Virus record (IMG/VR): IMGVR_UViG_2579778856_000001
Direction: 5' to 3' (one strand)
From: a virus
Lineage: Duplodnaviria; Heunggongvirae; Uroviricota; Caudoviricetes
Length of the DNA: 12,065 bases
The notes under the pieces are model-generated. The model was not told the origin of the DNA. It made no database searches and worked only from the letters and a program-made list of their open reading frames with translations. Shown here piece by piece: positions 1-12,065 of the stretch. Numbering within the stretch: position 1 is the first letter of the stretch; each line of letters starts with the position of its first letter. The position numbers and the translations under genes are program-made.

Positions 1-156
1 CCTGAGCCATTTGAAAATAACATTATCATTGACGCCATTTTCACGTGCAATCTGTGCAACACAAGCTCCAGGTTGTGATGCCAGTTCCACCATACGAAGT
101 TTGAATTCATTCGAATAGTTTTTACGAGGTTCTTTTCGCCAGTCCTGTAATTCCAT
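1..156 (-). CDS. tnpA: IS66-family accessory transposase TnpA (OrfA), N-terminal 52 codons; the rest runs off the left edge
   Basis: Not in the ORF track (partial, short). The reverse complement of 1-156 reads without stops from ATG (154-156) as MELQDWRKEPRKNYSNEFKLRMVELASQPGACVAQIARENGVNDNVIFKWLR. The pattern R-x-NYSxEFK ... GVNxNxxFKWxR matches the HTH_Tnp_1 fold as found in IS66-type TnpA. Confidence 0.7.
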   Translation of the reverse strand, partial: MELQDWRKEPRKNYSNEFKLRMVELASQPGACVAQIARENGVNDNVIFKWLR

Positions 157-196
157 ACTTAGATGTCCGTCTATATCAGATGGGCGTCTAAGTTAC
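1..196 (-). mobile_element. Left end of an IS66-family insertion sequence (terminal region plus start of tnpA); boundary approximate
   Basis: tnpA starts at 156. The minus-strand sequence from 196 reads GTAACTTAGACGCCCATCTGATATAGACGGACATCTAAGT-ATG. IS66-family ends classically begin GTAA..., and the flanking reading frame changes character here. The exact terminus is not proven. Confidence 0.4.
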
Positions 197-197
197 C

Positions 198-395
198 AAT
201 TCTCGTCTGATGGCTACATACGGCGGTCAGTTTACGCTTACGTCCCTTCTGGTCAAAATGGACGAAGAAATGCTCTGCTTCTTCGACAGCAACGGGCGAA
301 CCACCATGCCCCGTAAAGCTTTCTCCCTGCGTACTGGCGTAACCCGCCGCCAGCTGTTTCCAGACGCCATTTACTTCATTGAACGGGAGTTCTGA
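198..395 (+). pseudogene. 3' remnant of an unidentified gene truncated by the IS66-family insertion, translationally coupled to the radC-like gene
   Basis: Track ORF 210-395 stays open back to 198, and the in-frame TAA at 189-191 lies inside the IS end. Codon usage is coding-like (TTC x6, ACC x3, GAC x3, CTG x3). The stop TGA 393-395 sits 1 nt before the radC-like ATG (tgacATG). No own start or RBS, and no family recognised. The antisense ORF 171-449 is the competing reading. Confidence 0.4.
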
Positions 396-396
396 C

Positions 397-849
397 ATGA
401 CCATGTTTACCCAGCGTGAAACCCGTATCCTTGACCAGGCGCGTGACATTATTAGCCGGTACTACCAGCGTGGGGTTCAACTCTGTTCCCCTGATGATGT
501 TCGACGGTGCGTGATGGTTGAGCTGGCACCGCTTGAACATGAAGAGTTTGGCATCATCCTACTCGATAATCATAATCAGCTGCTGCACCGCGAAATCCTG
601 TTCAGGGGTACGCTAAACTCGGTCAGCGTTCACCCCCGTGAAGTTATTAAGCGTGTGCTGAAACATAACGCCGCCGCCGTCATCCTTGTCCATAATCACC
701 CCAGCGGCGAGCCTGAACCCAGCCGGTGTGACATCCAGTTGACCAAAAAGCTTCAGGAGCTGCTGGAAATACTGGATGTGCGGTTACTTGATCACTTTAT
801 CGTGGCAGGAACTGAAACGGTGTCGATGGCTGAGCGAGGACTGGTGTGA
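397..849 (+). CDS. radC: RadC-like JAB-domain protein (DUF2466; YeeS/YkfG/YfjY-type of CP4-like islands)
   Basis: Track ORF 379-849 starts at TTG; ATG 397 is preferred (MTMFTQRETRIL...). Typical RadC-like core: EEFGIILLDNHNQLLHREILFRGTLNSVSVHPREVIKRVLKHNAAAVILVHNHPSGEPEPSRCDIQLTKKL...LDHFIV, including the HNHPSG metalloprotease-like motif. Confidence 0.85.
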   Translation: MTMFTQRETRILDQARDIISRYYQRGVQLCSPDDVRRCVMVELAPLEHEEFGIILLDNHNQLLHREILFRGTLNSVSVHPREVIKRVLKHNAAAVILVHNHPSGEPEPSRCDIQLTKKLQELLEILDVRLLDHFIVAGTETVSMAERGLV

Positions 850-895
850 TGCTGAAAGTTACTTGGTTTAATGTACGTTATTGCGGGTTACGCGC

Positions 896-1825
896 ATGAG
901 CAGGACAGCGTTGCGTCAGGTCGTGCCGGTGGTGCAAACCACCGTGTTCGATGCGTATATTGTCGGTCTGGCCCCCTCGGGACGGCGAGGTATCACCAGC
1001 CTGTTAAACCGCAGCGCCAGCATACTTAAACACGGTGCGGATGCAGCAGACTATCCGTGGGAACAACTTAACTACGCCGCCGTTGCCAAAGTGCGCGCGG
1101 CACTGCTGGATGACGGTTACGCCGTGTCATCGGTCAACATGGCGCTGTCAGCACTCCGGGGCGTAGCGCAGACGGCCTTTAACCTCAATTACATGGATGC
1201 CGAAACGCTGGCACGTATCCGGTCAGTTAAGCGCGTGAGCGGCGATGTCCAGCGCAAGGGAAGGGCGCTGGGCAGGCAGGAAATCCGGGTACTGATTCAG
1301 GCTGCAAAACAGCATCCGCAATCTGTACGGCGCTGTCGCGATGTCGCCATTGTGCTGATGCTTTGCGGAACGGGCCTGCGGGCCGGGGAACTGGTTAAAC
1401 TTGAGCGCCGGGACTATGACAACGGCATCCTGACGGTGAGGCAAGGGAAGGGGCGTAAATACCGTGAAATTCACGTGGCGGATGCGGTGGACAAGGCTAT
1501 TCGTGCGTGGCTGAAAGTTGGCGCAGACGAGGCTGACAGTGCGTTGTTTAGGCGAATTCAGCGCAGTGGTAAGGTCGCAAGCCAACCGCTGACTACGACC
1601 GGGTTAACGGGTATCCTGGCTGAGTTACAGCAAACGGCAGGTATAGCACGTTTTACCCCGCATGATATGCGGCGCACCTTCATCACCCGTTTGCTGGAGC
1701 AGGGCGTGGATATCAATACCGTCCGCCAGTTGGCAGGCCACAGCGACATATCCACGACGACGCGCTATGACTGTCGTGGTGATACTATGAAGATCAGTGC
1801 CAGCAAGCGCATCAGATGTTTTTAG
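896..1825 (+). CDS. Tyrosine site-specific recombinase (XerC/XerD-like phage integrase family)
   Basis: Track ORF 881-1825 (TTG start); ATG 896 gives MSRTALRQ.... The catalytic signature is in the correct order: GTGLRAGEL (Arg), GKGRKYREI (Lys), HDMRRTF (His-x-x-Arg), GHSDISTTTRYD (His ... Tyr nucleophile). An N-terminal SAM-like core-binding segment is present (VSSVNMALSALRGVAQ). Confidence 0.9.
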   Translation: MSRTALRQVVPVVQTTVFDAYIVGLAPSGRRGITSLLNRSASILKHGADAADYPWEQLNYAAVAKVRAALLDDGYAVSSVNMALSALRGVAQTAFNLNYMDAETLARIRSVKRVSGDVQRKGRALGRQEIRVLIQAAKQHPQSVRRCRDVAIVLMLCGTGLRAGELVKLERRDYDNGILTVRQGKGRKYREIHVADAVDKAIRAWLKVGADEADSALFRRIQRSGKVASQPLTTTGLTGILAELQQTAGIARFTPHDMRRTFITRLLEQGVDINTVRQLAGHSDISTTTRYDCRGDTMKISASKRIRCF

Positions 1826-2426
1826 CAGTTGAGGCGTTGCCAGACTCGGTTTCAGTTTCATCTTCAGCACTCAACCGCGCGTACTTTTGATTCTGGATGT
1901 TAATTTGTGCATTGATATTTTCAGGCTGAAGCATCCACGCAACATCCTCACGCGCCCATTCTTTACCGTCAGAGAGTCGTTTTAACCGGGGTTTCCATAT
2001 TCCATACTCATTAAGTTTTTCTGCTACCGAAGCATATTTCTCACGATCTGACTCCCCCGTATGAAGCTTGTCAAAACGACCTTTTACAAGCTGGTAAACA
2101 GTATAGATTTCCAGTGCCTTAGGGGACCTGGCCGGGACTATCATGGGGTGTTCCTCCGGCCTATAAATCCCGTTTGGCTCTCCCTCATTGAGCAGGTCAT
2201 TAAACATGTGGTTCACGCAGGCACTCAGCACATCTGCCGCTTTCTCCGCAGCGAATTTATCCGGGCTAAAACCCGCTCCCGTCAGTTTCCGGGCAATCAG
2301 TGCCAGTTTTTGCCGGGTATCCCGTCCCAGATAAAGCTTCTTCTCCAGAAATTCAAAGACCTCGTTACTGCTTTTCCGTTCCCGGTGGCATCTGGCGTCA
2401 GCCTTGTTGCTTTGGTTACCAATCAT
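1812..2426 (-). CDS. Hypothetical 204-aa protein, divergent from alpA; possible ribbon-helix-helix-type island regulator
   Basis: Track ORF 1812-2438. The second ATG (2426) is preceded by GGAGGT (2431-2436, minus) and is preferred. KKLYLGRDTRQKLALIARKL weakly resembles an RHH strand-helix. Acidic C-terminal tail (SAEDETETES). Its 3' end overlaps the recombinase 3' end by 14 nt. No confident family. Confidence 0.6.
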   Translation of the reverse strand: MIGNQSNKADARCHRERKSSNEVFEFLEKKLYLGRDTRQKLALIARKLTGAGFSPDKFAAEKAADVLSACVNHMFNDLLNEGEPNGIYRPEEHPMIVPARSPKALEIYTVYQLVKGRFDKLHTGESDREKYASVAEKLNEYGIWKPRLKRLSDGKEWAREDVAWMLQPENINAQINIQNQKYARLSAEDETETESGNASTAKNI

Positions 2427-2648
2427 AGTCACCTCCATGACAGTGTTTTGTACAAAATATCACCATTGAGCCTCAGTGAAAATTGCTTCTTTATATGACC
2501 GTTCTGGAGACAGAAATAGATGATCTCGAATGACATCCACATTAAAGATGCCCTTAACGTGCTCAACGAAGGCATCGTTGAGTGAATCCTTGCGTTTTTT
2601 GGTGGTTGTAAATAACCCGCTCCTGAAACAGCTCAAAGGAGCACAAGC

Positions 2649-2846
2649 ATGAACACCAACCGTATTTTGCGTAAAAAAGAGGTACTTCATCTGACGGGGA
2701 ACTCGTCAGCGACGTTGTACCGACTCATCTCGAAAGGATTCTTTCCTTTGTCAAAGAGGCTAACGGGCGACAATGGCCGGGCGGTAGGCTGGCTGGAGAG
2801 TGATATCAATAACTGGGTTAACAGCCGTATGCAGGCGGGAGAATGA
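2649..2846 (+). CDS. alpA: AlpA-family phage/island transcriptional regulator (excisionase-like HTH, MerR superfamily)
   Basis: 65 aa. ILRKKEVLHLTGNSSATLYRLISKGFFPLSKRLTGDNGRAVGWLESDINNWVNSR matches the AlpA signature (LRxKEV...TGxSxSTLYRLI..G.FP.P.KLG.RAVGW.ESEI..W). AAGGAG lies 8 nt upstream of the ATG. Confidence 0.9.
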   Translation: MNTNRILRKKEVLHLTGNSSATLYRLISKGFFPLSKRLTGDNGRAVGWLESDINNWVNSRMQAGE

Positions 2847-2847
2847 A

Positions 2848-3315
2848 ATGAAAGAGATAAAATCGAAAACCAGTTCTGCGAAAAAAACGCTGGTTCCTTG
2901 GTTCGAAACTATGGGGAAACAGGTTGGTTTATCACAAGAAACGATATCAGCAGTGTTAAAGGAGCAGCGTTTACGGATACGTAAGCTTAACTACGCATCT
3001 GCATATACAGTGTCCAATATTCTCATACAGGATTGCGGCGGGGCCGATGACATGTGGAGCAACTACGCTAAACTGGCGCTTATCCTTGAGCGTTGTAAAT
3101 ACATTCCCTGCGGGAGCAGGGCCTGTGCATATTGTTCTACCGCTCAGCAATTACATTATCAGGGGGTGGATGTAACCGGGGAATACGCTTTATATCAGTT
3201 GCCTGAGTTATTTTTAGATTTTTTAGAAACAAACGACAAAAATTCCTCTTATCATTGGGATTACAATAAGTTAGTTGAGCGGCATGAAGATGCTCAGGCG
3301 AGGTCATTCGGGTAA
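2848..3315 (+). CDS. Hypothetical 155-aa protein with an N-terminal HTH-like segment and a Cys cluster
   Basis: Track ORF 2800-3315. The internal ATG 2848 follows the alpA stop (2844-2846) by 1 nt and has GGGAGA 6 nt upstream, so alpA-coupled translation is preferred. MGKQVGLSQETISAVLKEQRL looks like a helix-turn-helix. CKYIPCGSRACAYC is a possible metal site. No family recognised. Confidence 0.65.
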   Translation: MKEIKSKTSSAKKTLVPWFETMGKQVGLSQETISAVLKEQRLRIRKLNYASAYTVSNILIQDCGGADDMWSNYAKLALILERCKYIPCGSRACAYCSTAQQLHYQGVDVTGEYALYQLPELFLDFLETNDKNSSYHWDYNKLVERHEDAQARSFG

Positions 3316-3346
3316 TAGCCATTTCTGTATGGTGAAAAACTGACAT

Positions 3347-3381
3347 ATTACCCTGCCACTGCATTTTGGTGGCAGGGTAAT
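3347..3381. other. Perfect 13-bp stem-loop between the 155-aa and 284-aa genes
   Basis: ATTACCCTGCCAC (3347-3359) pairs with GTGGCAGGGTAAT (3369-3381) around a 9-nt loop. No T-run follows on the plus strand, so it is not a canonical terminator. The arm and loop contain CCACTGCATTTT, which recurs at 4335-4346. Confidence 0.6.
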
Positions 3382-3402
3382 CAATACAGCTAGGAATATT
3401 AA

Positions 3403-4257
3403 ATGAACGATTCTTATTACTTCAGAACATCTGACCCGGATTACATTCGTCACGCACCGTCAATGCTTGAGATTTTAAGTAAAGCATTCCCCACTATTAT
3501 TACCCAGCAGGAAAGTGAGTATGAACTGCAGCGTCTTAACCATTTACTAAATAAACTGAAAGGCAGCAATCGCTGCTACAACATCATTGCTCAAAAACTA
3601 AGGCAGTGCAGAAACGGATCTCCATGCAACAGTCTTATATGCCCGCATTGCCAGCGGGAACGCATTCTGGCGCAACTGGCTATGTTGCATGTCTTGCCGG
3701 GGAATTCAGCAGAATACGTGGGAGTGGTCCTGTTTTTCAACAAGGATACGCAAACTCCGCCGCCATGGAAGAACATTGGGGCGCTCAGGGCGCAAATCGG
3801 TCGTTATAAGCAGAGGATAAGCCGGGTACTTAACCGCCTGGGGTACGCCGGTCCGGCCACAGGCACCTTCAGTATGATGCGACATATGCCTGATGGCCCA
3901 GAAGAGCGTATTTTCTGGGTTCCACAGTTGTGTTTGTTCCTGCCCAATGACAGTACGTTGATTAAGGGGCTAAAAGCGCATATGTCGCGAAGTGGTGGGG
4001 CATTCATTGATGCATCGACGCTTAACACACCAGTGATCGTGCTCAGGTATAAAGATCCCGCGAGACTGATTTCATGCGCCCTGAATCCAGTCTGGCACAC
4101 AGCAGATTACACACTGACTGATAAAGACGCTCTTGTTAAGTCAAGAATGGAGCTACTGAAAGGCCGGACACTGTTAAAAAGTCTGCTTACCCTGGACTCA
4201 CTCGGAACAGGTGTCGTTTCTTTTTCGTTTGGGCAACCCCCAGGGAAAGTGCACTGA
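3403..4257 (+). CDS. Hypothetical 284-aa protein with a C-x5-C-x4-C-P-x-C zinc-ribbon-like motif
   Basis: Track ORF with ATG start and AGGAA 8 nt upstream. The motif QCRNGSPCNSLICPHCQRERILAQ falls at about aa 68-90. It recalls the PCGxCxxCR zinc motif at the N-terminus of some rolling-circle Rep proteins, but no HUH histidines are seen at the expected place (FWVPQLCLFLPN). The function call is therefore open. Confidence 0.7.
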   Translation: MNDSYYFRTSDPDYIRHAPSMLEILSKAFPTIITQQESEYELQRLNHLLNKLKGSNRCYNIIAQKLRQCRNGSPCNSLICPHCQRERILAQLAMLHVLPGNSAEYVGVVLFFNKDTQTPPPWKNIGALRAQIGRYKQRISRVLNRLGYAGPATGTFSMMRHMPDGPEERIFWVPQLCLFLPNDSTLIKGLKAHMSRSGGAFIDASTLNTPVIVLRYKDPARLISCALNPVWHTADYTLTDKDALVKSRMELLKGRTLLKSLLTLDSLGTGVVSFSFGQPPGKVH

Positions 4258-4270
4258 TTTACCGGTAATG

Positions 4271-4401
4271 CAGCAACTGCAATGCACTTTTGCTGTTGAT
4301 TAAATTGCAGTGGAACGACGAATAACAGCGGCAACCACTGCATTTTCGTTGTTGTAAAACTGCAAAGCTTGCCAGTGATTTTGATGGCGCTGATGCACTT
4401 T
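4271..4401. repeat. Iteron/operator-like cluster of ACTGCA(A/T) and ATGCACTTT motifs with two hairpins
   Basis: ACTGCAA at 4276-4282, inverted copy TTGCAGT at 4305-4311, ACTGCAT at 4337-4343, ACTGCAA at 4359-4365. ATGCACTTT at 4282-4290 and 4393-4401. Hairpin CAGCAA/TTGCTG at 4271-4276/4290-4295. Hairpin TGCAGTGG/CCACTGCA at 4306-4313/4335-4342, followed by TTTT. Confidence 0.5.
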
Positions 4402-4439
4402 AACATTCCAACTGTCTCGATTTTAACGCAACCGTCTGT

Positions 4440-4833
4440 TTTCTGCAGGGGCTCACGGATGCCTCTGCACACCCGATCCTTACCATCAACTGACGAGTTA
4501 GCGCATCTGTGAGGGCTTTCTGTGTTTCTGTCAGTGAATATTCTACACACAATGGGGGGAGCGGTCAGCGAGCACCATTGCCATTGAGCGCAACGGAGAG
4601 CTTGGGGACATGCAGCACTACGGAGGCTTCATCTCCTTCTCATGTCATTAAACGATACGGCGAACGAGCGCAGCGAGTGAGGGAAGGCGTCAGCCTGAAC
4701 AGGGGGAAAGATTTGCGACCGGAGTGGAGCAAATCATGGGCGGAGCCCATCCTCGCGACTGGGGTTTTGACTTTCGAATTGCCCAGCGTTGAGTTTGGTT
4801 AATGTAGTGAGACGAGGATGCTGAGAGGGGACC
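4440..4833 (+). other. ORF-poor, more GC-rich leader upstream of the polymerase-like gene; candidate structured RNA or 5' UTR
   Basis: Only alternative-start or antisense ORFs with implausible composition cover it. Local hairpins: TGCAGGGGC/GCCTCTGCA (4444-4452/4461-4469, one G-U pair) and ATGGGC-gga-GCCCAT (4736-4750). Micro-tandems: TTTCTGTG/TTTCTGTC (4517-4532) and CCATTG x2 (4575-4586). Direct repeats GAGCGCA, CAGCGAG and GCGACYGG. No known RNA family recognised. Confidence 0.3.
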
Positions 4834-6231
4834 GTGAGTACTGAAAAGGATTATCCAGTGAAGATCCCTAAGTGGGTTTATGACCGTATTACTGAAATAA
4901 CGGATTATGTCGTGGGGGATACGCAATGGGCTGTTACCCGGCGGCAGACAGTACGGTGGTTCCTGGCTCACATATGGCTGGAAACAGACGATGATGGCTG
5001 GACTATATGCACTGTCCGGGATATCCGTAGCAGCTATGCCAGTCTCCTGGGACAGTGTGAAATTAGTTACCAGGGGGAGTGCTTTATGTCCACGCTAACT
5101 GATTTCCTGCCGACACTTTCGGATATTGAATTTCGTGCAGGAAAAGCGAGCAAAGACCCGGAAAAGCGTAGAGCCAGTGCATGGCGGTTCAACCCCCTGC
5201 TGCCTGTGTGTGATGAGTCTGCCAGGGGTAAGTTAAATCTGGTTGACTTGGATACTGGTGAGTCTGTTAGTTTTAGAGCTCTGCTTCAGGGGAACGGGAA
5301 AGCTCCTGGGCATGCGATAGATGTAGAGAAACGCCAGACGGCCCTAAAACAAACGGAAAAGGACTTCTTGGCCAAAGTTGGGCGGGGGCGCATGAGTATA
5401 CAGTTTGTGAAGGAATTGCGTAGCCGTGAGCCGGATCACTATTACCGCGCAGGAATACGCAGCCTTAACCATCTCTACAATGGCAGGATTGAGGGACAAT
5501 ATGTCACTTACGACCATCATTATCGTCTGACGTTTGGAGGGCGGTATTATGATCAAGCTTTCCAGAATCTGCCCAATGAGTTCAAAGCTAAATTTCGGAC
5601 CGGGTTACTCAACTATGACATCGAAGCGTGCAATCTGGCCTGTCTGAACCATCTGTTCAGACAGTATGACGTCGATTATCGTGTGAAGTCATCGATATAT
5701 AAAACCATGATGGAACATACCGGGCTGACCCGTAAACAGTGCAAACAGATGGTCCATACCACCACCTACAGAATTGGGCGTGTGACTATTGGTGTTAATG
5801 ATGGCCTTGGGGCAAAAGTGTATGGATGGTGCGGTAACAGCAAAAAAAAGGCGCTAAAGATTTTGCGTTGGTGGAACCGTTATATCAGTCCATTGAAATC
5901 TGCGCTTGAGTCATTGCTGGAACGTGTGCATGGCGCACACCGCAAGAGTTGTTCATCACCGCGTAACTATCACAGGTACGCTAATGAAGTCGGATTAATA
6001 CTGGATCTTAATAGTGAGGTGTATCAGCGTGAAAAGACTCACCATCATCAATATGCGCGGAATAAGGCACTGTTGGCGTTTATGATCTGTGGTGTGGAGC
6101 AGGCGTATATCCGTGAGGTTGTCAGTATGAACCCTGGTCGTGTCTGCATGCTGGATCATGATGGGGTAGTGGCAACGGGCGCGCTTTCACTACCGGACTG
6201 GCGTGGTTTCACGATGAAAGTGAAGGACTAG
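4834..6231 (+). CDS. Compact family-A DNA polymerase-like protein (palm/fingers motifs present, no exonuclease domain); putative island replication polymerase/primase
   Basis: GTG start directly after an in-frame TGA (4822-4824), with GAGGGG at 4825-4830. Ordered PolA motifs: TFGGRYYDQAFQNLP (aa 233-247, compare TGRLSSxxPNLQNIP); LLNYDIEACNLACLNHL (aa 258-274, compare DYSQIELRxxAHL, motif A); RKQCKQMVHTTTYRIG (aa 300-315, exact R-x3-K-x7-Y O-helix spacing, motif B); VCMLDHDGVVA (aa 437-447, compare QVHDE, motif C). Inter-motif spacings resemble those of Pol I. Confidence 0.75.
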   Translation: MSTEKDYPVKIPKWVYDRITEITDYVVGDTQWAVTRRQTVRWFLAHIWLETDDDGWTICTVRDIRSSYASLLGQCEISYQGECFMSTLTDFLPTLSDIEFRAGKASKDPEKRRASAWRFNPLLPVCDESARGKLNLVDLDTGESVSFRALLQGNGKAPGHAIDVEKRQTALKQTEKDFLAKVGRGRMSIQFVKELRSREPDHYYRAGIRSLNHLYNGRIEGQYVTYDHHYRLTFGGRYYDQAFQNLPNEFKAKFRTGLLNYDIEACNLACLNHLFRQYDVDYRVKSSIYKTMMEHTGLTRKQCKQMVHTTTYRIGRVTIGVNDGLGAKVYGWCGNSKKKALKILRWWNRYISPLKSALESLLERVHGAHRKSCSSPRNYHRYANEVGLILDLNSEVYQREKTHHHQYARNKALLAFMICGVEQAYIREVVSMNPGRVCMLDHDGVVATGALSLPDWRGFTMKVKD

Positions 6232-6297
6232 CTTACTTTCTTGAATTTAACTATCTGCGATCTCTGATAAGGGCGTATTACGTTGTCAATCATAATG

Positions 6298-6328
6298 GGA
6301 TATGCGCATTGGAACGATGTGCATATCC
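6298..6328. other. 12-bp stem-loop between the polymerase-like gene and the IS30-type inverted repeat
   Basis: GGATATGCGCAT (6298-6309) pairs with ATGTGCATATCC (6317-6328), with one G-T position and a 7-nt loop. No flanking T-run on either strand. Confidence 0.5.
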
Positions 6329-6355
6329 AGTAAGTGATCCATGTCCGCTTTGAGC

Positions 6356-7045
6356 TGTGAGTTCAACGGGTCGATGCAACGCTGTCCCTAATCAAGGGGG
6401 ACGTTGCCATGAAACGAAGAACTCGTATTAACTACACGCCAGAGCAAAAGGTGATTATTTGGGACAGATATAAGCAAGGTGATTCCCTGCATGATATCCC
6501 CCAGAATGTTCGACAGATTTCACTCTACTATCATGCCTACAATCCACCAGGCCGGTGGCTACCGTCCTCCCGTGCGAAAGCGGCACCGGTTAGCGTTTTC
6601 GCTTGATGAAAAAGAGGAGATATCCAGAGGACTGGTAGCAAAACGCATCATCAGGGACATCGCTGCTAAATTATCAATAGCTCCCTCAACGATTAGCCGC
6701 GAGATCAGGAGGCACGGCGGTGCAAAACAATACCGTGCAGCAAAAGCCGATCCTGCTGCGTGGGAAAATGCTCTGAGACCAAAACCTTGCAAGCTAATTG
6801 AAAGCCCCACATTGTGTAAAATCATTGCAGAGAAGATGCATCAGGACTGGTCGCCGGAACAAATTGGCGGTTGGCTAAAACGCTGTTATCCCGATAATCA
6901 GGAAATGCATGTGTCACATGAAATGATTTATAAAACGCTTTTTATACCAACCCGGGGAGCTTTAAAAAAAGAGCTGCAGCAATGCCTCAGAAGCGGAAGA
7001 GTAGTGCGTAGATCCAAAACCTCATCACTTAAAGTAAACAGAGAT
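6356..7045 (+). mobile_element. IS30-family insertion sequence remnant: left inverted repeat plus a 5' portion of the transposase gene; right part deleted
   Basis: TGTGAGTTCAACGGGTCGATGCAACGCTG (6356-6384) resembles, from memory, the IS30 IRL (TGTAGATTCAATTGGTCAACGCAACAG). It is followed by an IS30-type transposase N-terminus. No DDE catalytic domain and no right IR occur before the next gene. Confidence 0.65.
6409..7045 (+). pseudogene. IS30-family transposase pseudogene (frameshifted and 3'-truncated)
   Basis: Two track ORFs (6409-6606 and 6479-7090) join into one IS30-like N-terminus, MKRRTRINYTPEQKVIIWDRYKQGDSLHDI / (P)RMFDRFHSTI...STISREIRRHGG...WSPEQIGGWLK...HVSHEMIYKTLF...LRSGRVVRRSKTSSLK, if one C is removed from the C5 run at 6498-6502. 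Similarity ends near aa R188 of the second ORF (about 7042), before the DDE domain. Confidence 0.75.
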
Positions 7046-7227
7046 ACATTCTGGTCACGAATGCCCGGTTGTTCGTGCTTTGCGTTTTAATCGCATTTTA
7101 CAGTTTCTGCCTGCGTGCAGAGGTTGATGGTATTTTCTGAAAAAGCGGCTCGCTTTGCTAATGCATATGGCACAAATACAACAGTTTGTGTCATTCTGAC
7201 CCATCTTTATACCGCGACGGTGGAAAC

Positions 7228-9798
7228 ATGGATGAGCTGCTAACCCTTGGCTGCATTGCTTTATTCTTCGCACTGGTGGTGGTTCCCATCCTCGCGATTA
7301 TCGCGCTCAGCCGCAGCACGGCTGTTCGTTCTGAGCTGGCGACCCTGCGTCGCCGGGTGGAGGTGCTTGAGCAGCGCGGTGTGACTGAAGCACCCGCCAC
7401 AGTGGTAACAACTGTGCCGCAGAGTGTTTCGCAGATGGTTGTGCCTGTTGAAACGTCTTCGCCTGCGGTTAACATCGTGCTGTCGGAGCCTGTGGCTGAT
7501 GTCACGCCTGAGTCCGTTGACCCCTGGCGTCCACAACCGAAGCCGCAAAACGAGGCGCTACCCACACCAGCGGTCGAACAATCTTCCGCTTTTGGTGGGG
7601 TGATGTCGTCCCTGGTGCGCTGGTTTATGCAGGGCAACCCGCTGGCAAAGCTGGGTATTCTGCTTCTCTTCCTTGGCTTCTCCTTCCTGCTGCGTTATAC
7701 GGTTGAACACTCCCTGTTCCCGCTTGAGCTACGTCTGGTGGCGACTTCGCTGTTTGCGATTGCCCTGCTGGTAGTGGGCTGGCGATTGCGGCATAAACAG
7801 CTGGTTTATGCGCTGATCATACAGGGTGGAGCTACGGGGACGCTCTATCTCACCGTTTTTGGCGCATTCTGGCTCTGGCAGATGCTGCCGATGACGCTGG
7901 CGTTTGCATTACTGGTGGCGATTTGCGCGGCGAGCGTGGGACTGGCGATTATGCAAAAAGCGCTCAGCCTCGCGATGCTGGCAAGTATCGGTGGCTATCT
8001 GGCACCGCTGTTGCTTTCCACCGGCGGCGGTAGTCATGTGGCGCTCTTCTCTTTCTACCTTCTGCTTTCCGTCGGTATTCTCGCCATCAGCATCTGGCAA
8101 CACTGGCGCGAGCTTAATCTGCTTGGCCTGTTATTTACCTTTGGTATCGGCGGTCTTTGGGGACTCGACGGCTATCGATCAGAGTATTACCTGAGCAGTC
8201 AGCTTTTCCTGATAGCCAATACGATCATTTTTGGTGTGCTGAGCGTGGCGCTATCGCTACGAGCACAGGAGAAAGGTAAGCAGATTATTGATGGCGTGCT
8301 GTTGTTTGCATCGCCGCTGGTCGGTTTTGGCATGCAGTACGCCATAACCCGGCATATGGAATATGGTCCGGCGCTTAGCGCGCTGGGTTACGGCGGTTTC
8401 TATCTGGCGTTAGCATGGCTTGCATTGCGTCGCTATCCCTCTTTGGGGAGGCCGCTGGTGCTGGCGGCGCTGGCGCTGGGTGGGGCATTTACCACGCTCG
8501 CTATCCCACTGGCGCTTTCGGCCCGCTGGACGGCGATGGCCTGGGCGCTGGAAGGTCTCGGCATCCTCTGGCTGGGCGTGCAACAGCAGCAGCGGCGTAT
8601 GAGCTATAGCGGCACTGCGCTGCTGGTGCTGGCAGTGTGCAGCGCGCTGTGGGCGCAGATGAACGGGATGAGCGCGCTTTCTCTGGTGCTAATCTTTGCC
8701 GTACTCAGCCTCAGCTGGCTGGCTGCCGCCTGGCTGTGGCGCAATATTCAGTTGCAGGGTAGTTGGGTTCTGTTGGCTGGCGGTTTGATCTTCTGGATAA
8801 TCGCGCTCATTGGGGCATCGCAACTGGTGCTGAAAAAGGACTCGCTGGTGCTGTCTGGCGTGCTGGCGTTAATGGCGATATCGGTCTGGGGCTGGCGGAT
8901 TGTCTCTGGTCGTCTGGCCTGGTGGGAGCTGGATGTCAGCAAATGGTTGCTGTGGCCGACGATGCTGGTGATGCTGCTGTCTCAAATTTCACAACATGAG
9001 ATTTTTGCTGCGGGCTGGCAGAATCTGGCCTGGTGTCTGGCGTTACCCGCTGCGGGGGCATTGCTCTGGCGTGATGCTGAGACGTTGCCGCCGCGCCTCT
9101 CCAGACTGGCGCACCTTTCACTCTTCTGGATGATTCTGCTCGCGCTGGCGGCGGAGCTATTCTGGTTTGCGCAAGATCTGCCATGGGGCATGGCGGCGTG
9201 GGGCTCCGGCCTGATGATGGCCGCGGGGGGCCTGCTCATCTTTCTCGTTCATGAGGCGGTTCATCGTCAGCTATGGCCATTCCGAAGCTGGCCCGCACTC
9301 TACGCTTCTCAGGCGATGATACCGGTAGCTGCGGTATTGGTTGTTCTGCTAGTACTGACGAATTTGCAGGATGGCGTAGTTTATCGCCAGACCTGGCTGC
9401 CGCTGGTGAATCCACTGGAGGAGGGGGCCGCTTTTGCGCTACTGGGACTCATTGTATTTTATCGCGTTTCGCAGCGCTTTTTCCCGGTGCAGATTTCGGT
9501 ATGCCGTCCCTGGCCGCTCATTGCACTGCTGGCGCTTAGCTTCTGGTGGCTGAATGGCATCCTGCTGCGCGCATTGGCCTGGTACGGCGAAGTGCCCTGG
9601 AGCGCGGAAACACTGTGGCATTCGCGGCTGATTCAGACCTGTTTTGCCCTGTTCTGGATGCTGGCGGCATTAGTGGTGATGCTACGTGCGACCCGGCGTT
9701 GCTCACGTCGCGAATGGCTTTGTGGATCCGTATTGTTAGGGATTGTTATTGTGAAACTGATGTTGGTAGACAGTGCGCGTGGCGGCGGCCTGGCATGA
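7228..9798 (+). CDS. DUF2339-type polytopic inner-membrane protein (856 aa), apparently lacking its natural C-terminus
   Basis: Track ORF 7186-9798 (TTG start). ATG 7228 with GGTGGA upstream gives MDELLTLGCIALFFALVVVPILAIIAL. The layout is one TM, then a coiled LATLRRRVEVLEQRG segment, then a Pro/Val-rich linker, then more than 20 hydrophobic helices. This is the architecture I recall for DUF2339. It ends ...KLMLVDSARGGGLA, and the TGA stop is supplied at the sequence-character break (9796). Confidence 0.8.
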   Translation: MDELLTLGCIALFFALVVVPILAIIALSRSTAVRSELATLRRRVEVLEQRGVTEAPATVVTTVPQSVSQMVVPVETSSPAVNIVLSEPVADVTPESVDPWRPQPKPQNEALPTPAVEQSSAFGGVMSSLVRWFMQGNPLAKLGILLLFLGFSFLLRYTVEHSLFPLELRLVATSLFAIALLVVGWRLRHKQLVYALIIQGGATGTLYLTVFGAFWLWQMLPMTLAFALLVAICAASVGLAIMQKALSLAMLASIGGYLAPLLLSTGGGSHVALFSFYLLLSVGILAISIWQHWRELNLLGLLFTFGIGGLWGLDGYRSEYYLSSQLFLIANTIIFGVLSVALSLRAQEKGKQIIDGVLLFASPLVGFGMQYAITRHMEYGPALSALGYGGFYLALAWLALRRYPSLGRPLVLAALALGGAFTTLAIPLALSARWTAMAWALEGLGILWLGVQQQQRRMSYSGTALLVLAVCSALWAQMNGMSALSLVLIFAVLSLSWLAAAWLWRNIQLQGSWVLLAGGLIFWIIALIGASQLVLKKDSLVLSGVLALMAISVWGWRIVSGRLAWWELDVSKWLLWPTMLVMLLSQISQHEIFAAGWQNLAWCLALPAAGALLWRDAETLPPRLSRLAHLSLFWMILLALAAELFWFAQDLPWGMAAWGSGLMMAAGGLLIFLVHEAVHRQLWPFRSWPALYASQAMIPVAAVLVVLLVLTNLQDGVVYRQTWLPLVNPLEEGAAFALLGLIVFYRVSQRFFPVQISVCRPWPLIALLALSFWWLNGILLRALAWYGEVPWSAETLWHSRLIQTCFALFWMLAALVVMLRATRRCSRREWLCGSVLLGIVIVKLMLVDSARGGGLA

Positions 9799-9915
9799 TC
9801 AGACATGAGATAAATGAAGGGGGATCCGTGAGATAAATAACGAATTGGAGTGGGTTAACATGGGTTCTGGTGAACAGAACTGAAATTCTTTTCCGCTATA
9901 CGATAGATAAGTCGG
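9796..9915. repeat. Putative transposable-phage terminus with repeated transposase-binding-like sites
   Basis: The junction begins TGATCAGA.... CATGAGATAAATGA (9804-9817) and CGTGAGATAAATAA (9827-9840) share an exact TGAGATAAAT core (9806-9815 and 9829-9838) 23 bp apart. A degenerate third copy is ACGATAGATAAGT (about 9900-9912). From memory these resemble the CACGATAAATGCGAAA element of the Mu right end. Confidence 0.45.
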
Positions 9916-9918
9916 GCA

Positions 9919-9948
9919 TTGAAATCATCCTTCCTGGCAACTTAGAAT
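9919..9948 (+). promoter_or_regulatory. Candidate sigma70 promoter for the 53-aa ORF
   Basis: TTGAAA (9919-9924), 18-nt spacer, TAGAAT (9943-9948), lying about 45 nt upstream of ATG 9992. Sequence match only. Confidence 0.3.
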
Positions 9949-9991
9949 CGAGTTTGCTGAAACATGACCCGCAACAAAAAGGATGATTCCA

Positions 9992-10153
9992 ATGACTACT
10001 CAAAACAATAAGCATGATAGCCTGGATTACTCAGAAAAGCCCAAAAGCAAGCACATCGTGACGTTCGAGCGCGATTCCGGTAGAAAAGGAGAATCGTCTT
10101 CCTCTGCCAATAAAACCACTATGCCGGCAGCCCCTGCCCCAGGGAAAAAATAA
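9992..10153 (+). CDS. Small hydrophilic 53-aa hypothetical protein
   Basis: Not in the track (under 60 aa). ATG 9992 with AAGGA (9979-9983) upstream. Translation: MTTQNNKHDSLDYSEKPKSKHIVTFERDSGRKGESSSSANKTTMPAAPAPGKK, stop TAA 10151-10153. Convergent with the 3-TM gene, with only 3 nt between the stops. No family recognised. Confidence 0.35.
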   Translation: MTTQNNKHDSLDYSEKPKSKHIVTFERDSGRKGESSSSANKTTMPAAPAPGKK

Positions 10154-10156
10154 ACA

Positions 10157-10789
10157 TCATTCATCGTTCGTTGCACGAACGCGCCTGATCTCCACTCTGG
10201 CAATCTGATCTGCTGGAATATAGGTTGCCAGAGCTCCCCAGTACTTATCAACCACGCCTTTATACTCTTCCCATTCGTTACTGCCTGAAGGGCTGCTGTG
10301 CGTGACGTAAAGAACCATATCGCCTTTATTCCCCAGGGTAAACGGACCGTTAGGCCACTCTTCAAAGTTCCCTGGCAGCCGTGACATCATACCGGAACCA
10401 TCGCGAAGAATCACTCTGACCTCGGTAACGCTGAAGCCTGTTTGATCAAACATTGCCTGCCATGCTGAGCTGGTATCGTCAGACCATGAAATATCATTAT
10501 TCCACAGTAATCTGTACATCCATTTGCGACCGTACCTGCGCCACCACGCACCGCATGTAAGGGCACACAGAAGTGCTGGTGGTGTTGCCAGCCAGGCATT
10601 CAGACCTGCCCACATAACAGCCTGGTAAGCCATCATTGCTGTCAGGCCAAAAATCAGCGAAGAAAAAGTCACCTCAATGGGCTTGTGGTGATCCTTCAGT
10701 CCCACATTCGCAATAAAATACCCAATATAGCCACTGGTCAGGGTCACCAGTGTTGCCCATGGCAGATTTAACAACGAAACGTCAAACAT
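10157..10789 (-). CDS. 210-aa membrane protein: three N-terminal TM helices plus a soluble C-terminal domain of about 110 aa (prophage cargo, unknown function)
   Basis: Track ORF 10157-10867. Its first 26 codons span the mor terminator, so ATG 10789 with AGGGAGAA upstream is preferred (MFDVSLLNLPWATLVTLTSGYIGYFIANVGL...). TM helices: LPWATLVTLTSGYIGYFIANVGL, VTFSSLIFGLTAMMAYQAVMWAGL, AWLATPPALLCALTCGAWW followed by RRYGRK. The C-terminal domain is W/E/D-rich. No family recognised. Confidence 0.7.
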   Translation of the reverse strand: MFDVSLLNLPWATLVTLTSGYIGYFIANVGLKDHHKPIEVTFSSLIFGLTAMMAYQAVMWAGLNAWLATPPALLCALTCGAWWRRYGRKWMYRLLWNNDISWSDDTSSAWQAMFDQTGFSVTEVRVILRDGSGMMSRLPGNFEEWPNGPFTLGNKGDMVLYVTHSSPSGSNEWEEYKGVVDKYWGALATYIPADQIARVEIRRVRATNDE

Positions 10790-10827
10790 ATTTTCTCCCT
10801 GCATCCTGAATACTAAAGAGAGAGCAT

Positions 10828-10861
10828 AAAAAAAGCACGGTAAGGGGTCTACCGTGCTTTT
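10828..10861 (-). terminator. Rho-independent terminator downstream of mor (bidirectional geometry, stronger on the minus strand)
   Basis: Stem GCACGGTA (10835-10842) pairs with TACCGTGC (10850-10857) around the loop AGGGGTC. It is flanked by A7 (10828-10834) and T4 (10858-10861). Read on the minus strand, the hairpin is followed by TTTTTTT. Confidence 0.8.
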
Positions 10862-10903
10862 ATACAATAAGGAGATTTTTGAAAGGACTTTAACAAGCAG
10901 GAA

Positions 10904-11302
10904 TTATCTGGATTTGTTAACGTCTTTCGTCTCCTCTGGCAGATCTTCATCAAACAACCTGCCCTGCATCCGATCCAGTTCTTCTTTTCTGACCCGCTTA
11001 ACCACGCTGTAGACCCACTGAAGCGAAACACCAAACTTGCGGGCCAGTTCGTGGTGGTTGCGTCCGTTAAACTCCCTGAAGATTTCCCGGTCGCGCTGAC
11101 TGACCTTCCATACCATGCCCATCGGGAAATAAACGTTTTGCCCGCCCCAGACCTGCATCATTCGGTTCGCGACGGCCTGACCAATCTGGTCGGCAACTTC
11201 GGGCTCAATATCAATAATCTCGCGAACGGTCTCAGAGGTATGCTGTGCCAGTTCCACCAGGAGTTCCGGCCCCTTACTTCGAAACTGATTCAGGTCGCTC
11301 AT
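10904..11302 (-). CDS. mor: Mor-family middle-operon transcriptional activator (Mu gp17-like)
   Basis: 132 aa with GGGAG upstream. The central GGQNVYFPMG...REIFREFNGRNHHELARKFGVSLQWVYSVVKRVRK parallels Mu Mor (GGGQVYIPRG...IWNDFNGRNVSELTTRYGVTFNTVYKAIRRMRR). Located immediately downstream of gemA, as in Mu. Confidence 0.85.
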   Translation of the reverse strand: MSDLNQFRSKGPELLVELAQHTSETVREIIDIEPEVADQIGQAVANRMMQVWGGQNVYFPMGMVWKVSQRDREIFREFNGRNHHELARKFGVSLQWVYSVVKRVRKEELDRMQGRLFDEDLPEETKDVNKSR

Positions 11303-11726
11303 GTTTGACTCCCGCAGCTCTGCGCTGCCACTTCTTCAGTTTCTCAATAACACTGCTTGCCTGTTCAGTACTGAGCCAGCGCAGGGCGCTGATGCCCGTT
11401 TCCCGCTTGATCCACCGCGCTAATGCATTTTCTGAACGGTCACGAACAATGCCGGCAGCAGCCATTTCAAGCCATAGCGCACGGATTTTCCTGGACTGCG
11501 GATGGTTATCCAGCGGTAAACCGGAGCTGGCTTTTCCGGCAGGCTTAACGCGAAAGCCTTTCCTTTTCATGGATTCCAGCACGCAGTTTAGTTGTGTGGT
11601 ATCCATTCCTTTGGTTGAGGCTTTACCGGTCAGCCCCTGTAACATCTGGCGGTAGGTGTCTTCATCCATACCCAGTTCATTACGGGCAATATGAATGAGC
11701 TGGATAAGACGTTGTTTAGTCATCAT
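11274..11726 (-). CDS. gemA: GemA-like regulatory protein (Mu gp16, DUF1018)
   Basis: Track ORF 11274-11765. ATG 11726 has AAGGAG 5 nt upstream (MMTKQRLIQLIHIARNELGMDEDTYRQML...). IHIAxxxLGxDxDTYRxxL...RKIRALW...ALxRWIKRETGISALRWL is the DUF1018/GemA pattern. It overlaps the mor start by 29 nt. Confidence 0.8.
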   Translation of the reverse strand: MMTKQRLIQLIHIARNELGMDEDTYRQMLQGLTGKASTKGMDTTQLNCVLESMKRKGFRVKPAGKASSGLPLDNHPQSRKIRALWLEMAAAGIVRDRSENALARWIKRETGISALRWLSTEQASSVIEKLKKWQRRAAGVKHERPESVSK

Positions 11727-11931
11727 CGTTGCTCCTTTTACCTGCGCCACCGATATAATCGACATATAAAGGAAGCGCCACAGGCCAGCACAGGAACATC
11801 ACCGACCAGCTAATCCAGTAGCCAGCACCACTGTAACGTGAATAAAACCCTGAACGGCGGTGCAGTTCAGCAGTACACCAACCGACAAAACAATACCAGA
11901 ACAGGGCACATACAACAGATTCAGCCGTCAT
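11716..11931 (-). CDS. Small 71-aa two-TM membrane protein of the Mu-like early region
   Basis: Track ORF 11716-12045 (GTG start). The internal ATG 11931 is preferred because a better-looking upstream gene in another frame ends at 11921. MTAESVVCALFWYCFVGWCTAEL...YWISWSVMFLCWPVALPLYV gives two hydrophobic helices. Its stop overlaps the gemA start (ATGATGACTAA). Confidence 0.5.
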   Translation of the reverse strand: MTAESVVCALFWYCFVGWCTAELHRRSGFYSRYSGAGYWISWSVMFLCWPVALPLYVDYIGGAGKRSNDDD

Positions 11932-12064
11932 TCTGAATATCCCCCCAACTGATATGAATATTACGGGCAGCAATGACAGGGTCGTTATTCCACCATGCAC
12001 CTGACATGTATTTTTCAACCTGTTCGCGTCCGGCAATAACACCAATTGTGATCCCCGGCCTGAC
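11921..12064 (-). CDS. C-terminal 47 codons of an unidentified Mu-like early-region protein (5' part beyond the right edge)
   Basis: Not in the track. The minus frame from 12064 reads VRPGITIGVIAGREQVEKYMSGAWWNNDPVIAARNIHISWGDIQNDG then TGA (11921-11923). This overlaps the ATG of the next gene by 11 nt, a typical phage operon overlap. Globular-looking composition. Confidence 0.45.
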   Translation of the reverse strand, partial: VRPGITIGVIAGREQVEKYMSGAWWNNDPVIAARNIHISWGDIQNDG

Positions 12065-12065
12065 G

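Follow-up and report, generated by a model that had tools for sequence, protein, structure and literature searches.

The 12,065-nucleotide (nt) stretch analysed here (the window; IMG/VR record IMGVR_UViG_2579778856_000001) is the last 12,065 nt of scaffold KK736311.1 in the Escherichia coli assembly GCA_000692435.1. It consists of island DNA (positions 1-7186), followed by a membrane-protein gene of the DUF2339 family and by 2,270 nt of phage DNA that run up to the scaffold end. Based on comparisons with complete genomes, homologous loci and phage records, we conclude with high confidence that the left end of a BcepMu-like transposable myovirus prophage, inserted in the 3' part of the accessory DUF2339 gene, begins with the base at position 9796. 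The insertion removed 29 codons and supplied the stop codon. The event is ordinary and of an already known kind, i.e. a BcepMu-type prophage common in E. coli that disrupts an accessory membrane-protein gene.

The truncated gene (7228..9795, plus strand) comprises 856 codons from an ATG at 7228, with an upstream TTG at 7186 also open, and its open reading frame (ORF; 7186/7228..9798) matches Pfam DUF2339 (PF10101) with E = 1.5e-146. The ORF terminates in ...KLMLVDSARGGGLA (...GGGLA), with a TGA stop at 9796-9798. In E. coli the gene is accessory, being present in 507 of the 5,426 complete genomes, and the intact allele of strain SK1144 encodes 885 amino acids, running 29 codons beyond the window's end (RAVTFIGVAILVLIVGYFSPLPPKAGEEK) to a stop that overlaps the start of a DUF3999 gene. 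Up to 9795, the window and the SK1144 allele show 0 mismatches over 5,000 nt, and in the 100 nt thereafter the identity falls to 26%, the level of random sequence, placing the host/phage boundary exactly between 9795 and 9796. The base composition switches at the same position, from a G+C content of 0.58 in 9196-9795 to 0.47 in 9796-10395.

Comparison with homologues defines what was lost. From 37 Enterobacteriaceae loci fetched as encoding relatives of the last 299 residues, 27 were examined, and in all of them the frame runs on past GGGL[A/S], for 29 or 35 codons and in one case for 34 (RAVAFIGVAILVLIVGYFSPLPPK...); no full-length homologue (0/27) ends at the window's last alanine. The 29 missing residues reach a 19-residue Kyte-Doolittle mean of 2.3 at their peak, as for a transmembrane helix, and a final hydrophobic helix after the K-L-M-L-V-D-S segment is found in all 27 homologues and in the intact E. 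coli allele, yet is absent from the window copy. The lost segment is the last transmembrane helix plus a short charged tail. An earlier note, made from the sequence alone, had suggested that a TG-terminated element cut the gene at its 3' end, at a switch in composition, and that some 25-35 codons with one more transmembrane helix were missing; all of this is borne out, the intact E. coli allele giving 29 codons and the homologues 29-35.

The same data bear on the reading in which 9796-9798 is the native stop and the downstream DNA the normal neighbourhood, with no insertion at all. Apart from the in-frame stop codon, nothing speaks for it. A 200-nt empty-site probe matches fully in each of the 507 complete E. 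coli genomes having the gene, and in all of them the native DNA 3' of it, which includes the overlapping DUF3999 gene, differs from the window. Together with the 27 homologues, these 507 genomes run past the point in question, and the DNA downstream of it in the window adjoins many unrelated genes elsewhere, so that this reading is refuted and retains virtually no probability. Neither of the two findings that the earlier note had named as refuting its interpretation was thus made. The stop codon instead belongs to the phage. The first three prophage bases, TGA (9796..9798, plus strand), hold the TG of the TG...CA termini and double as the stop of the truncated gene, and as this terminal TGA is in frame, the protein ends at the junction with zero added residues.

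The DNA right of the boundary (9796..12065, 2,270 nt) is identified as the left arm of the prophage through its identity to E. coli prophage copies. It is 99.6-99.8% identical to prophage DNA in E. coli, the whole arm being present in 86 complete genomes, and in most of the best matches the similarity to other copies begins exactly at 9796 (query position 497). Across complete E. coli genomes the matching prophage sits in at least 17 different genes, and the flanks of the copies include rfaH, phnP, yfaV, flgJ, gabP, irp1, cheA, ptsP, adeP, malZ and rstB. The identical start TGATCAGAC... adjoins unrelated flanks at five loci (L040, L049, L050, L057 and L059), and in the window the phage arm starts as TGATCAGACATGAG... 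directly 3' of the truncated gene.

Complete copies of the prophage measure 38,335-38,342 base pairs (bp) and have the ends TGATCAG...GCGCATCA, with the right-end sequence also given as ...GCATTTATCGCGCGGCGCATCA. In five of five complete copies examined, the 6 bp to the left of TGATCAG recur to the right of ...CATCA, namely CATTCC (gabP), CCTCGC (phnP), GTTGCG (yfaV), GCTGCA (adeP) and GCTGGC (ptsP), and the seventh base never matches. The copy of strain G749 (38,335 bp) splits gabP, and the empty gabP site, modelled with a single CATTCC, gives a 140/140 match to intact gabP in other genomes. The target duplication, as measured in E. coli copies, is thus 6 bp and not the 5 bp that had been expected in the earlier note. 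Phage Mu duplicates 5 bp of its target, and Tn552 6-7 bp, in agreement with the 6 bp measured here. By analogy with the five complete copies, the target site in the window is predicted to be CTGGCA (9790..9795), and the right junction of the insertion would read ...GCGCATCA/CTGGCA/CGCGCGGTC..., the predicted host side after CTGGCA (also written CGCGCGGTCACG / CGCGCGGTCACGTTTATC) leading into DUF3999. The window itself contains neither the right-end sequence nor the missing 3' fragment of the gene.

Further support comes from the terminal sequences. Two 14-bp repeats lie just inside the boundary, CATGAGATAAATGA at 9804..9817 and CGTGAGATAAATAA at 9827..9840 (both plus strand), 23 bp apart from start to start. 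They share the core GAGATAAAT, located at 9807-9815 and 9830-9838, i.e. at nt 12-20 and 35-43 from the terminus. This 9-mer is found at these two places only in the 12-kb window, with a chance expectation of 0.07, and none of 200 shuffles gave two or more occurrences. Read inward, the left end is TGATCAGACATGAGATAAATGAAGGGGGATCCGTGAGATAAATAACG and the right end TGATGCGCCGCGCGATAAATGCACTCTATCTTGTGCGATAAATGGCA; both start with TGA, and G[AC]GATAAAT cores occupy nt 12-20 and about 34-43. TGA and twin cores recur with this layout at a variant right end and at divergent left ends from enterobacteria (E. coli SCU-105 and IMG/VR contigs), 13 distinct ends in all, and the twin-core arrangement is found also at both ends of BcepMu, with looser versions at both ends of B3. 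An alignment of six left ends is almost invariant over nt 1-43 and patchy in the interior, with conservation at about nt 56-58 and 86-112. We take the two sites, which had been noticed earlier as a pair 23 bp apart, to be the conserved sub-terminal repeats of the BcepMu-like family, and their position, symmetry and conservation make them putative transposase-binding sites.

A degenerate third site, ACGATAGATAAGT at 9900..9912 (plus strand), had also been suggested and was rejected. It has 2 mismatches to the core, and with 59 equally good matches in the window, about 1.5 per 300 nt, it is no better than chance. At its position, scans of two E. coli-family left ends gave no match with at most 1 mismatch, four further left ends in the alignment do not keep the motif, and no third core copy (at most 1 mismatch) lies within 150 nt of any E. 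coli-type end scanned. The rejected motif is located at the edge of a block at about 9881-9907 (columns 86-112 of alignment A1), which is moderately conserved in divergent left ends and reads ATGnAATT..TT..GTATGTGAAA in relatives. Conceivable roles of this block are those of a binding site for a host factor, of a weak third site and of a pac-related signal.

Right ends differ among the copies, as seen in the comparison of L060 (NZ_CP054662.1) with L040, and one variant has different right-end DNA without the Gin-type invertase. The variant right end retains the repeat cores at nt 12-20 and 34-42, from which it follows that end-proximal cargo is exchangeable, the terminal ~45 nt being kept. The 6-bp duplication and the positioned twin repeats provide practical rules to delimit prophages that are often cut imprecisely by prophage-finding tools.

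Several observations weigh against the insertion of a complete prophage as proposed here. A 120-nt junction probe reached a coverage of at least 80% in none of the 5,426 complete E. coli genomes, i.e. no complete RefSeq E. coli genome has the window's junction, and the junction occurs in only one NCBI assembly and one assembly of a Sequence Read Archive (SRA) run, possibly from the same isolate. Contigs encoding the E. coli DUF3999 fragment (P0054) showed only uninterrupted loci when looked up, and the predicted right junction GGCGCATCA-CTGGCA-CGCGCGGTC had 0 exact-pattern matches in Joint Genome Institute (JGI) metagenomes. With the scaffold stopping 2,270 nt into the phage, we infer both the completeness of the prophage and the CTGGCA duplication, and transposase binding to the repeats is suggested by their conservation and position. 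The left junction likewise had 0 exact-pattern matches in JGI metagenomes. A search for the other prophage end and the missing 3' gene fragment, as the earlier note had envisaged, did not find the right junction, the scaffold ending at 12065.

The absence of the junction from the 5,426 complete genomes would fit an assembly chimera of an island contig and a phage contig as well. Two more contigs of unrelated SRA runs returned for the exact 856-amino-acid protein, L043 (SRR24204318) and L044 (SRR35015014), point in the same direction, stopping at the junction or 2 nt past it, and L043 continues with 'CG', as the intact allele does. However, the break lies exactly at the true phage terminus, at base 1 of TGATCAG, unlike what a random chimera would produce, and a separate Logan assembly of run SRR1187796, possibly of the same isolate, reads through the junction identically for 1.19 kb. 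Because of this identity the junction is not a scaffolding artefact, and we assign a chimera only a very small probability. L043 and L044 were considered as extra samples of the junction and rejected, as the junction is not shown in them; their ends may stem from a branch of the assembly graph where a mixed sample contained the two alleles, or may be coincidental.

Returning to the prophage insertion, its 2,270 nt are collinear with the complete 38.3-kb copies at the identity given above, with the ORFs and the TGA terminus intact. This argues against a solitary or defective left-end remnant, left after a deletion or rearrangement in the manner of the fossils on plasmids of avian pathogenic E. 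coli (APEC), in place of a complete prophage. Such a remnant would agree with the rest of the prophage being unseen, the scaffold ending 2,270 nt inside, and ~150-nt fossil left ends do occur elsewhere in E. coli next to insertion sequence (IS) elements. The fossils differ from the window, however, being 88-90% identical and without the terminal 9 nt, and a contig break in an often multi-copy phage would be an ordinary assembly outcome. We therefore regard a remnant as improbable.

The scaffold breaks at window position 12065, 2,270 nt into the prophage. Many complete E. coli genomes hold 2-4 matching places each, and the break at this position is a hint of a further copy in the strain, or of a related element with the same sequence from there on; a repeated mobile phage would explain the scaffold end. 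The fossil left-end fragments stem from a related element. At L053 (plasmid NZ_CP059908.1) and L054 (NZ_CP019903.1) they lie at positions ~2492-2650 beside a LysR gene and IS debris, each ~150 nt long, 88-90% identical and with the terminal 9 nt replaced. They occur on ~190 kb plasmids (APEC) of E. coli isolated from poultry and humans as well as on some chromosomes, and the left-end probe matched 109 places on plasmids.

The complete copies also reveal the family of the element. In the copy at L040, the gene order from the window's end is a 53-amino-acid ORF, a 210-amino-acid membrane protein, Mor, GemA, small ORFs and Gam, beyond which follow an ExeA/AAA+ protein, a 589-amino-acid transposase with an rve domain and small DNA-binding proteins. 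Transcription of this early block, which extends from the genes of the small DNA-binding proteins to the 210-amino-acid gene, runs toward the left end, and the 53-amino-acid ORF is oriented the opposite way. Next come a divergent helix-turn-helix (HTH) repressor, a Dam methylase, lysis genes, Mu-like head genes and P2-like tail genes, and at the far end of the prophage a Gin-type invertase accompanies an invertible tail-fibre segment. At about 9.3-9.6 kb into the element lie the repressor-like HTH gene and the region of divergent early promoters.

As the transposase lies beyond the window, its sequence was taken from a complete copy, with a left arm of 99.8% identity to that in the window. The sole Pfam domain of this transposase is rve, with no Mu transposase domains at E <= 0.001, and none of its tblastn matches among 50,697 phage records was to Mu. 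Its identity is 68% to BcepMu gp09 (over 98% of the length), 69% to the phiE255 protein, 57% to that of B3 and 98% to that of PhiKM. The transposases of BcepMu-type phages are Tn552-like rve enzymes, and the phage termini read 5'-TG...CA-3' (PMC2628397). For BcepMu and phiE255, '23-bp imperfect direct repeats', recognisable by the transposase in principle, are described at both ends, and the outermost parts of the two genomes carry genes specific to the lineage (PMC2920897). In B3-like phages, the early operon is inverted and the proteins for transposition differ from those of Mu (PMC5977238). The E. coli element combines an rve transposase, an early operon directed toward the left end, the corresponding termini and repeats, and many insertion sites, and on these sequence features it is a BcepMu/B3-type (Bcepmuvirus-type) transposable phage, not Mu proper.

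The likeness is closest to BcepMu (Bcepmuvirus; Summer et al. 2004, as relayed in PMC2628397 and PMC2920897) and its close relative phiE255, with transposases 68-69% identical and an ExeA-like AAA+ partner. In BcepMu, too, the early operon points toward the left end with gemA and mor last, and the lysis, head and P2-like tail modules lie to the right; its termini start with TGA, and the core G[AC]GATA[AT][AT]T is located at nt 12-20 and 35-43 of both ends, 23 bp apart. The E. coli element differs in its host, in an extra 1.1-kb two-gene module between terminus and mor, and in its right end, where a Gin-like invertase and an invertible tail-fibre segment replace the acyltransferase of BcepMu. 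E. coli Bcepmuvirus-type prophages such as Escherichia phage PhiKM (PQ738613, classified at NCBI as Bcepmuvirus) are the same element, with the insertion site alone differing, and Bcepmuvirus prophages have been noted in sequence type 131 (ST131) E. coli (bioRxiv 10.1101/2022.05.07.487787). B3 (Pseudomonas, Beetrevirus) shares the inverted early operon, in which mor is ORF1 at 124 nt from the left terminus, a transposase of 57% identity and a looser twin motif at about nt 12 and 34/35, whereas its late genes are of siphovirus type, its genus is another and its motif matches are weaker. The BcepMu transposase has been assigned to the Tn552 / IS1604 clade by the BcepMu annotation and the literature (PMC2628397); unlike the E. 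coli element, Tn552 and IS1604 are small transposons and not phages, and the kinship of the element to Tn552 runs via these statements on BcepMu.

With phage Mu (Muvirus), the E. coli element shares a temperate lifestyle, DDE transposition and TG...CA ends with sub-terminal sites for the transposase, putative ones in the E. coli element. The two also have Gam, GemA and Mor in common, and in both an invertible tail-fibre segment of the Gin type lies at the right end. Mu itself has MuA with Mu-specific DNA-binding domains, the c repressor by the left end, an early operon directed inward and three sites per end. The E. coli element, by contrast, has an rve-only transposase, duplicates 6 bp, directs its early operon outward and shows two evident sites per end; neither a MuA-type transposase nor a 5-bp duplication nor a left-end repressor with an inward early operon was found. 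The gene for a Mor-type activator of late transcription (mor, 10904..11302; Pfam Mor E = 1.1e-43, phrog_532) and the gene of the gemA / gp16 family (11274..11765; Pfam GemA E = 1.3e-40, with the annotated start at 11723 in identical copies) are both encoded on the minus strand, at a distance of 1.1-2.0 kb from the boundary, and point toward the terminus. The records of BcepMu and B3 list mor and gemA as genes 1 and 2, again on the minus strand and adjoining base 1.

These comparisons decide on the reading in which the window shows the right end of a true Mu prophage that has ends of MuA type and duplicates 5 bp. The TG terminus, the presence of mor and gemA and the transposable behaviour would suit it. 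Set against this are the rve-only transposase without a tblastn match to Mu, the 6-bp duplication, and the location of mor and gemA, which adjoin and point to this end, the left one in BcepMu and B3, with the gin-like invertase at the other; a Mu prophage therefore has hardly any likelihood. The earlier note had placed gemA and mor 1-2 kb inside a Mu-like element, which is correct for the two genes and, in the broad sense of a transposable phage, for the element, although the defining features of Mu tested here are missing. Its assignment of the boundary to the right end is reversed, the end being the left one by family convention, with mor as gene 1 in BcepMu and B3.

By analogy with Mu and Tn552, we propose that the BcepMu-like element inserted as follows. 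After infection or in lytic replication, the rve-type DDE transposase would bind the paired repeats at both ends and nick next to the terminal CA. In conjunction with the ExeA/AAA+ protein as a MuB analogue, the terminal 3'-CA ends would then be joined to target phosphates 6 bp apart, and gap repair would duplicate CTGGCA (9790-9795) at the other junction, about 38 kb off. Since both termini read 5'-TGA inward, about one third of insertions into coding sequence would end the host protein exactly at the junction.

As a consequence, the DUF2339 protein is left without its C-terminal helix and the downstream DUF3999 gene has been cut off from the gene preceding it, and the DUF2339 gene in GCA_000692435.1 should be annotated as a prophage-disrupted pseudogene. 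The DUF3999 gene is already frameshifted in SK1144 (L039 5087-6482) and split into ORFs of 70 and 362 amino acids in another E. coli contig (L046), and it forms an intact gene of ~464 amino acids in Citrobacter, Klebsiella and Leclercia. Because of the frameshift in SK1144 and the split in the other contig, the two-gene unit of DUF2339 and DUF3999 in E. coli was probably decaying before the phage inserted. More generally, the case shows active transposition of BcepMu-type phages within E. coli populations. Dozens of distinct insertion sites are occupied, among them rfaH, cheA, flgJ, ptsP and irp1, and such insertions can bear on strain phenotypes.

Between the terminus and mor, the left arm contains a two-gene module of 1.1 kb. 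It comprises a 53-amino-acid ORF (9992..10153, plus strand; phrog_15726, PHROG E = 1.2e-41; WP_001571575.1 in identical copies) and the gene for the 210-amino-acid predicted membrane protein (10157..10789, minus strand; phrog_12870). The module is absent in BcepMu and B3, where mor lies 365 and 124 nt from the end, respectively, and also in a sister enterobacterial lineage, in which the mor stop is about 174 nt from the terminus. Neither ORF has a match in Pfam or PADLOC, and their PHROGs families carry no function; a homologue of the 210-amino-acid protein has a sub-threshold DUF6338 match, and relatives with 55-77% identity are present in Klebsiella, Salmonella, Proteus, Serratia and Arsenophonus. 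The module might be an end-located accessory ('moron') cassette benefiting the lysogen, e.g. through superinfection exclusion or defence, a tentative suggestion that we consider rather unlikely.

Two hairpins were detected in the arm by consensus scan only. One of them (10831..10861, minus strand), directly 3' of mor, is a strong terminator-like structure with 13 pairs and a T run, which suggests that the early operon ends after mor and that the 210-amino-acid gene is transcribed separately. The other (9863..9881, plus strand; GAAATTCTTTT), 68-86 nt inside the terminus, has a 7-bp stem and a T-rich run and looks like a putative terminator facing inward-reading host transcription; the ATGnAATT..TT block that follows it is partly conserved in related left ends.

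The island part of the window (1-7186) encodes a tyrosine integrase, an AlpA-type gene, RadC, two large ORFs and a broken IS30-type transposase, and an Rfam scan of the window gave no matches. The two large ORFs, of 284 amino acids (3403-4257, plus strand) and 465 amino acids (4834-6231, plus strand), lie between the integrase/AlpA genes and the DUF2339 gene, and neither has a match in Pfam or PADLOC. The IS30-type transposase fragment (6479-7090, plus strand), located directly 5' of the DUF2339 gene, retains the HTH_38 domain only, and in annotation elsewhere it is given as frameshifted or partial.

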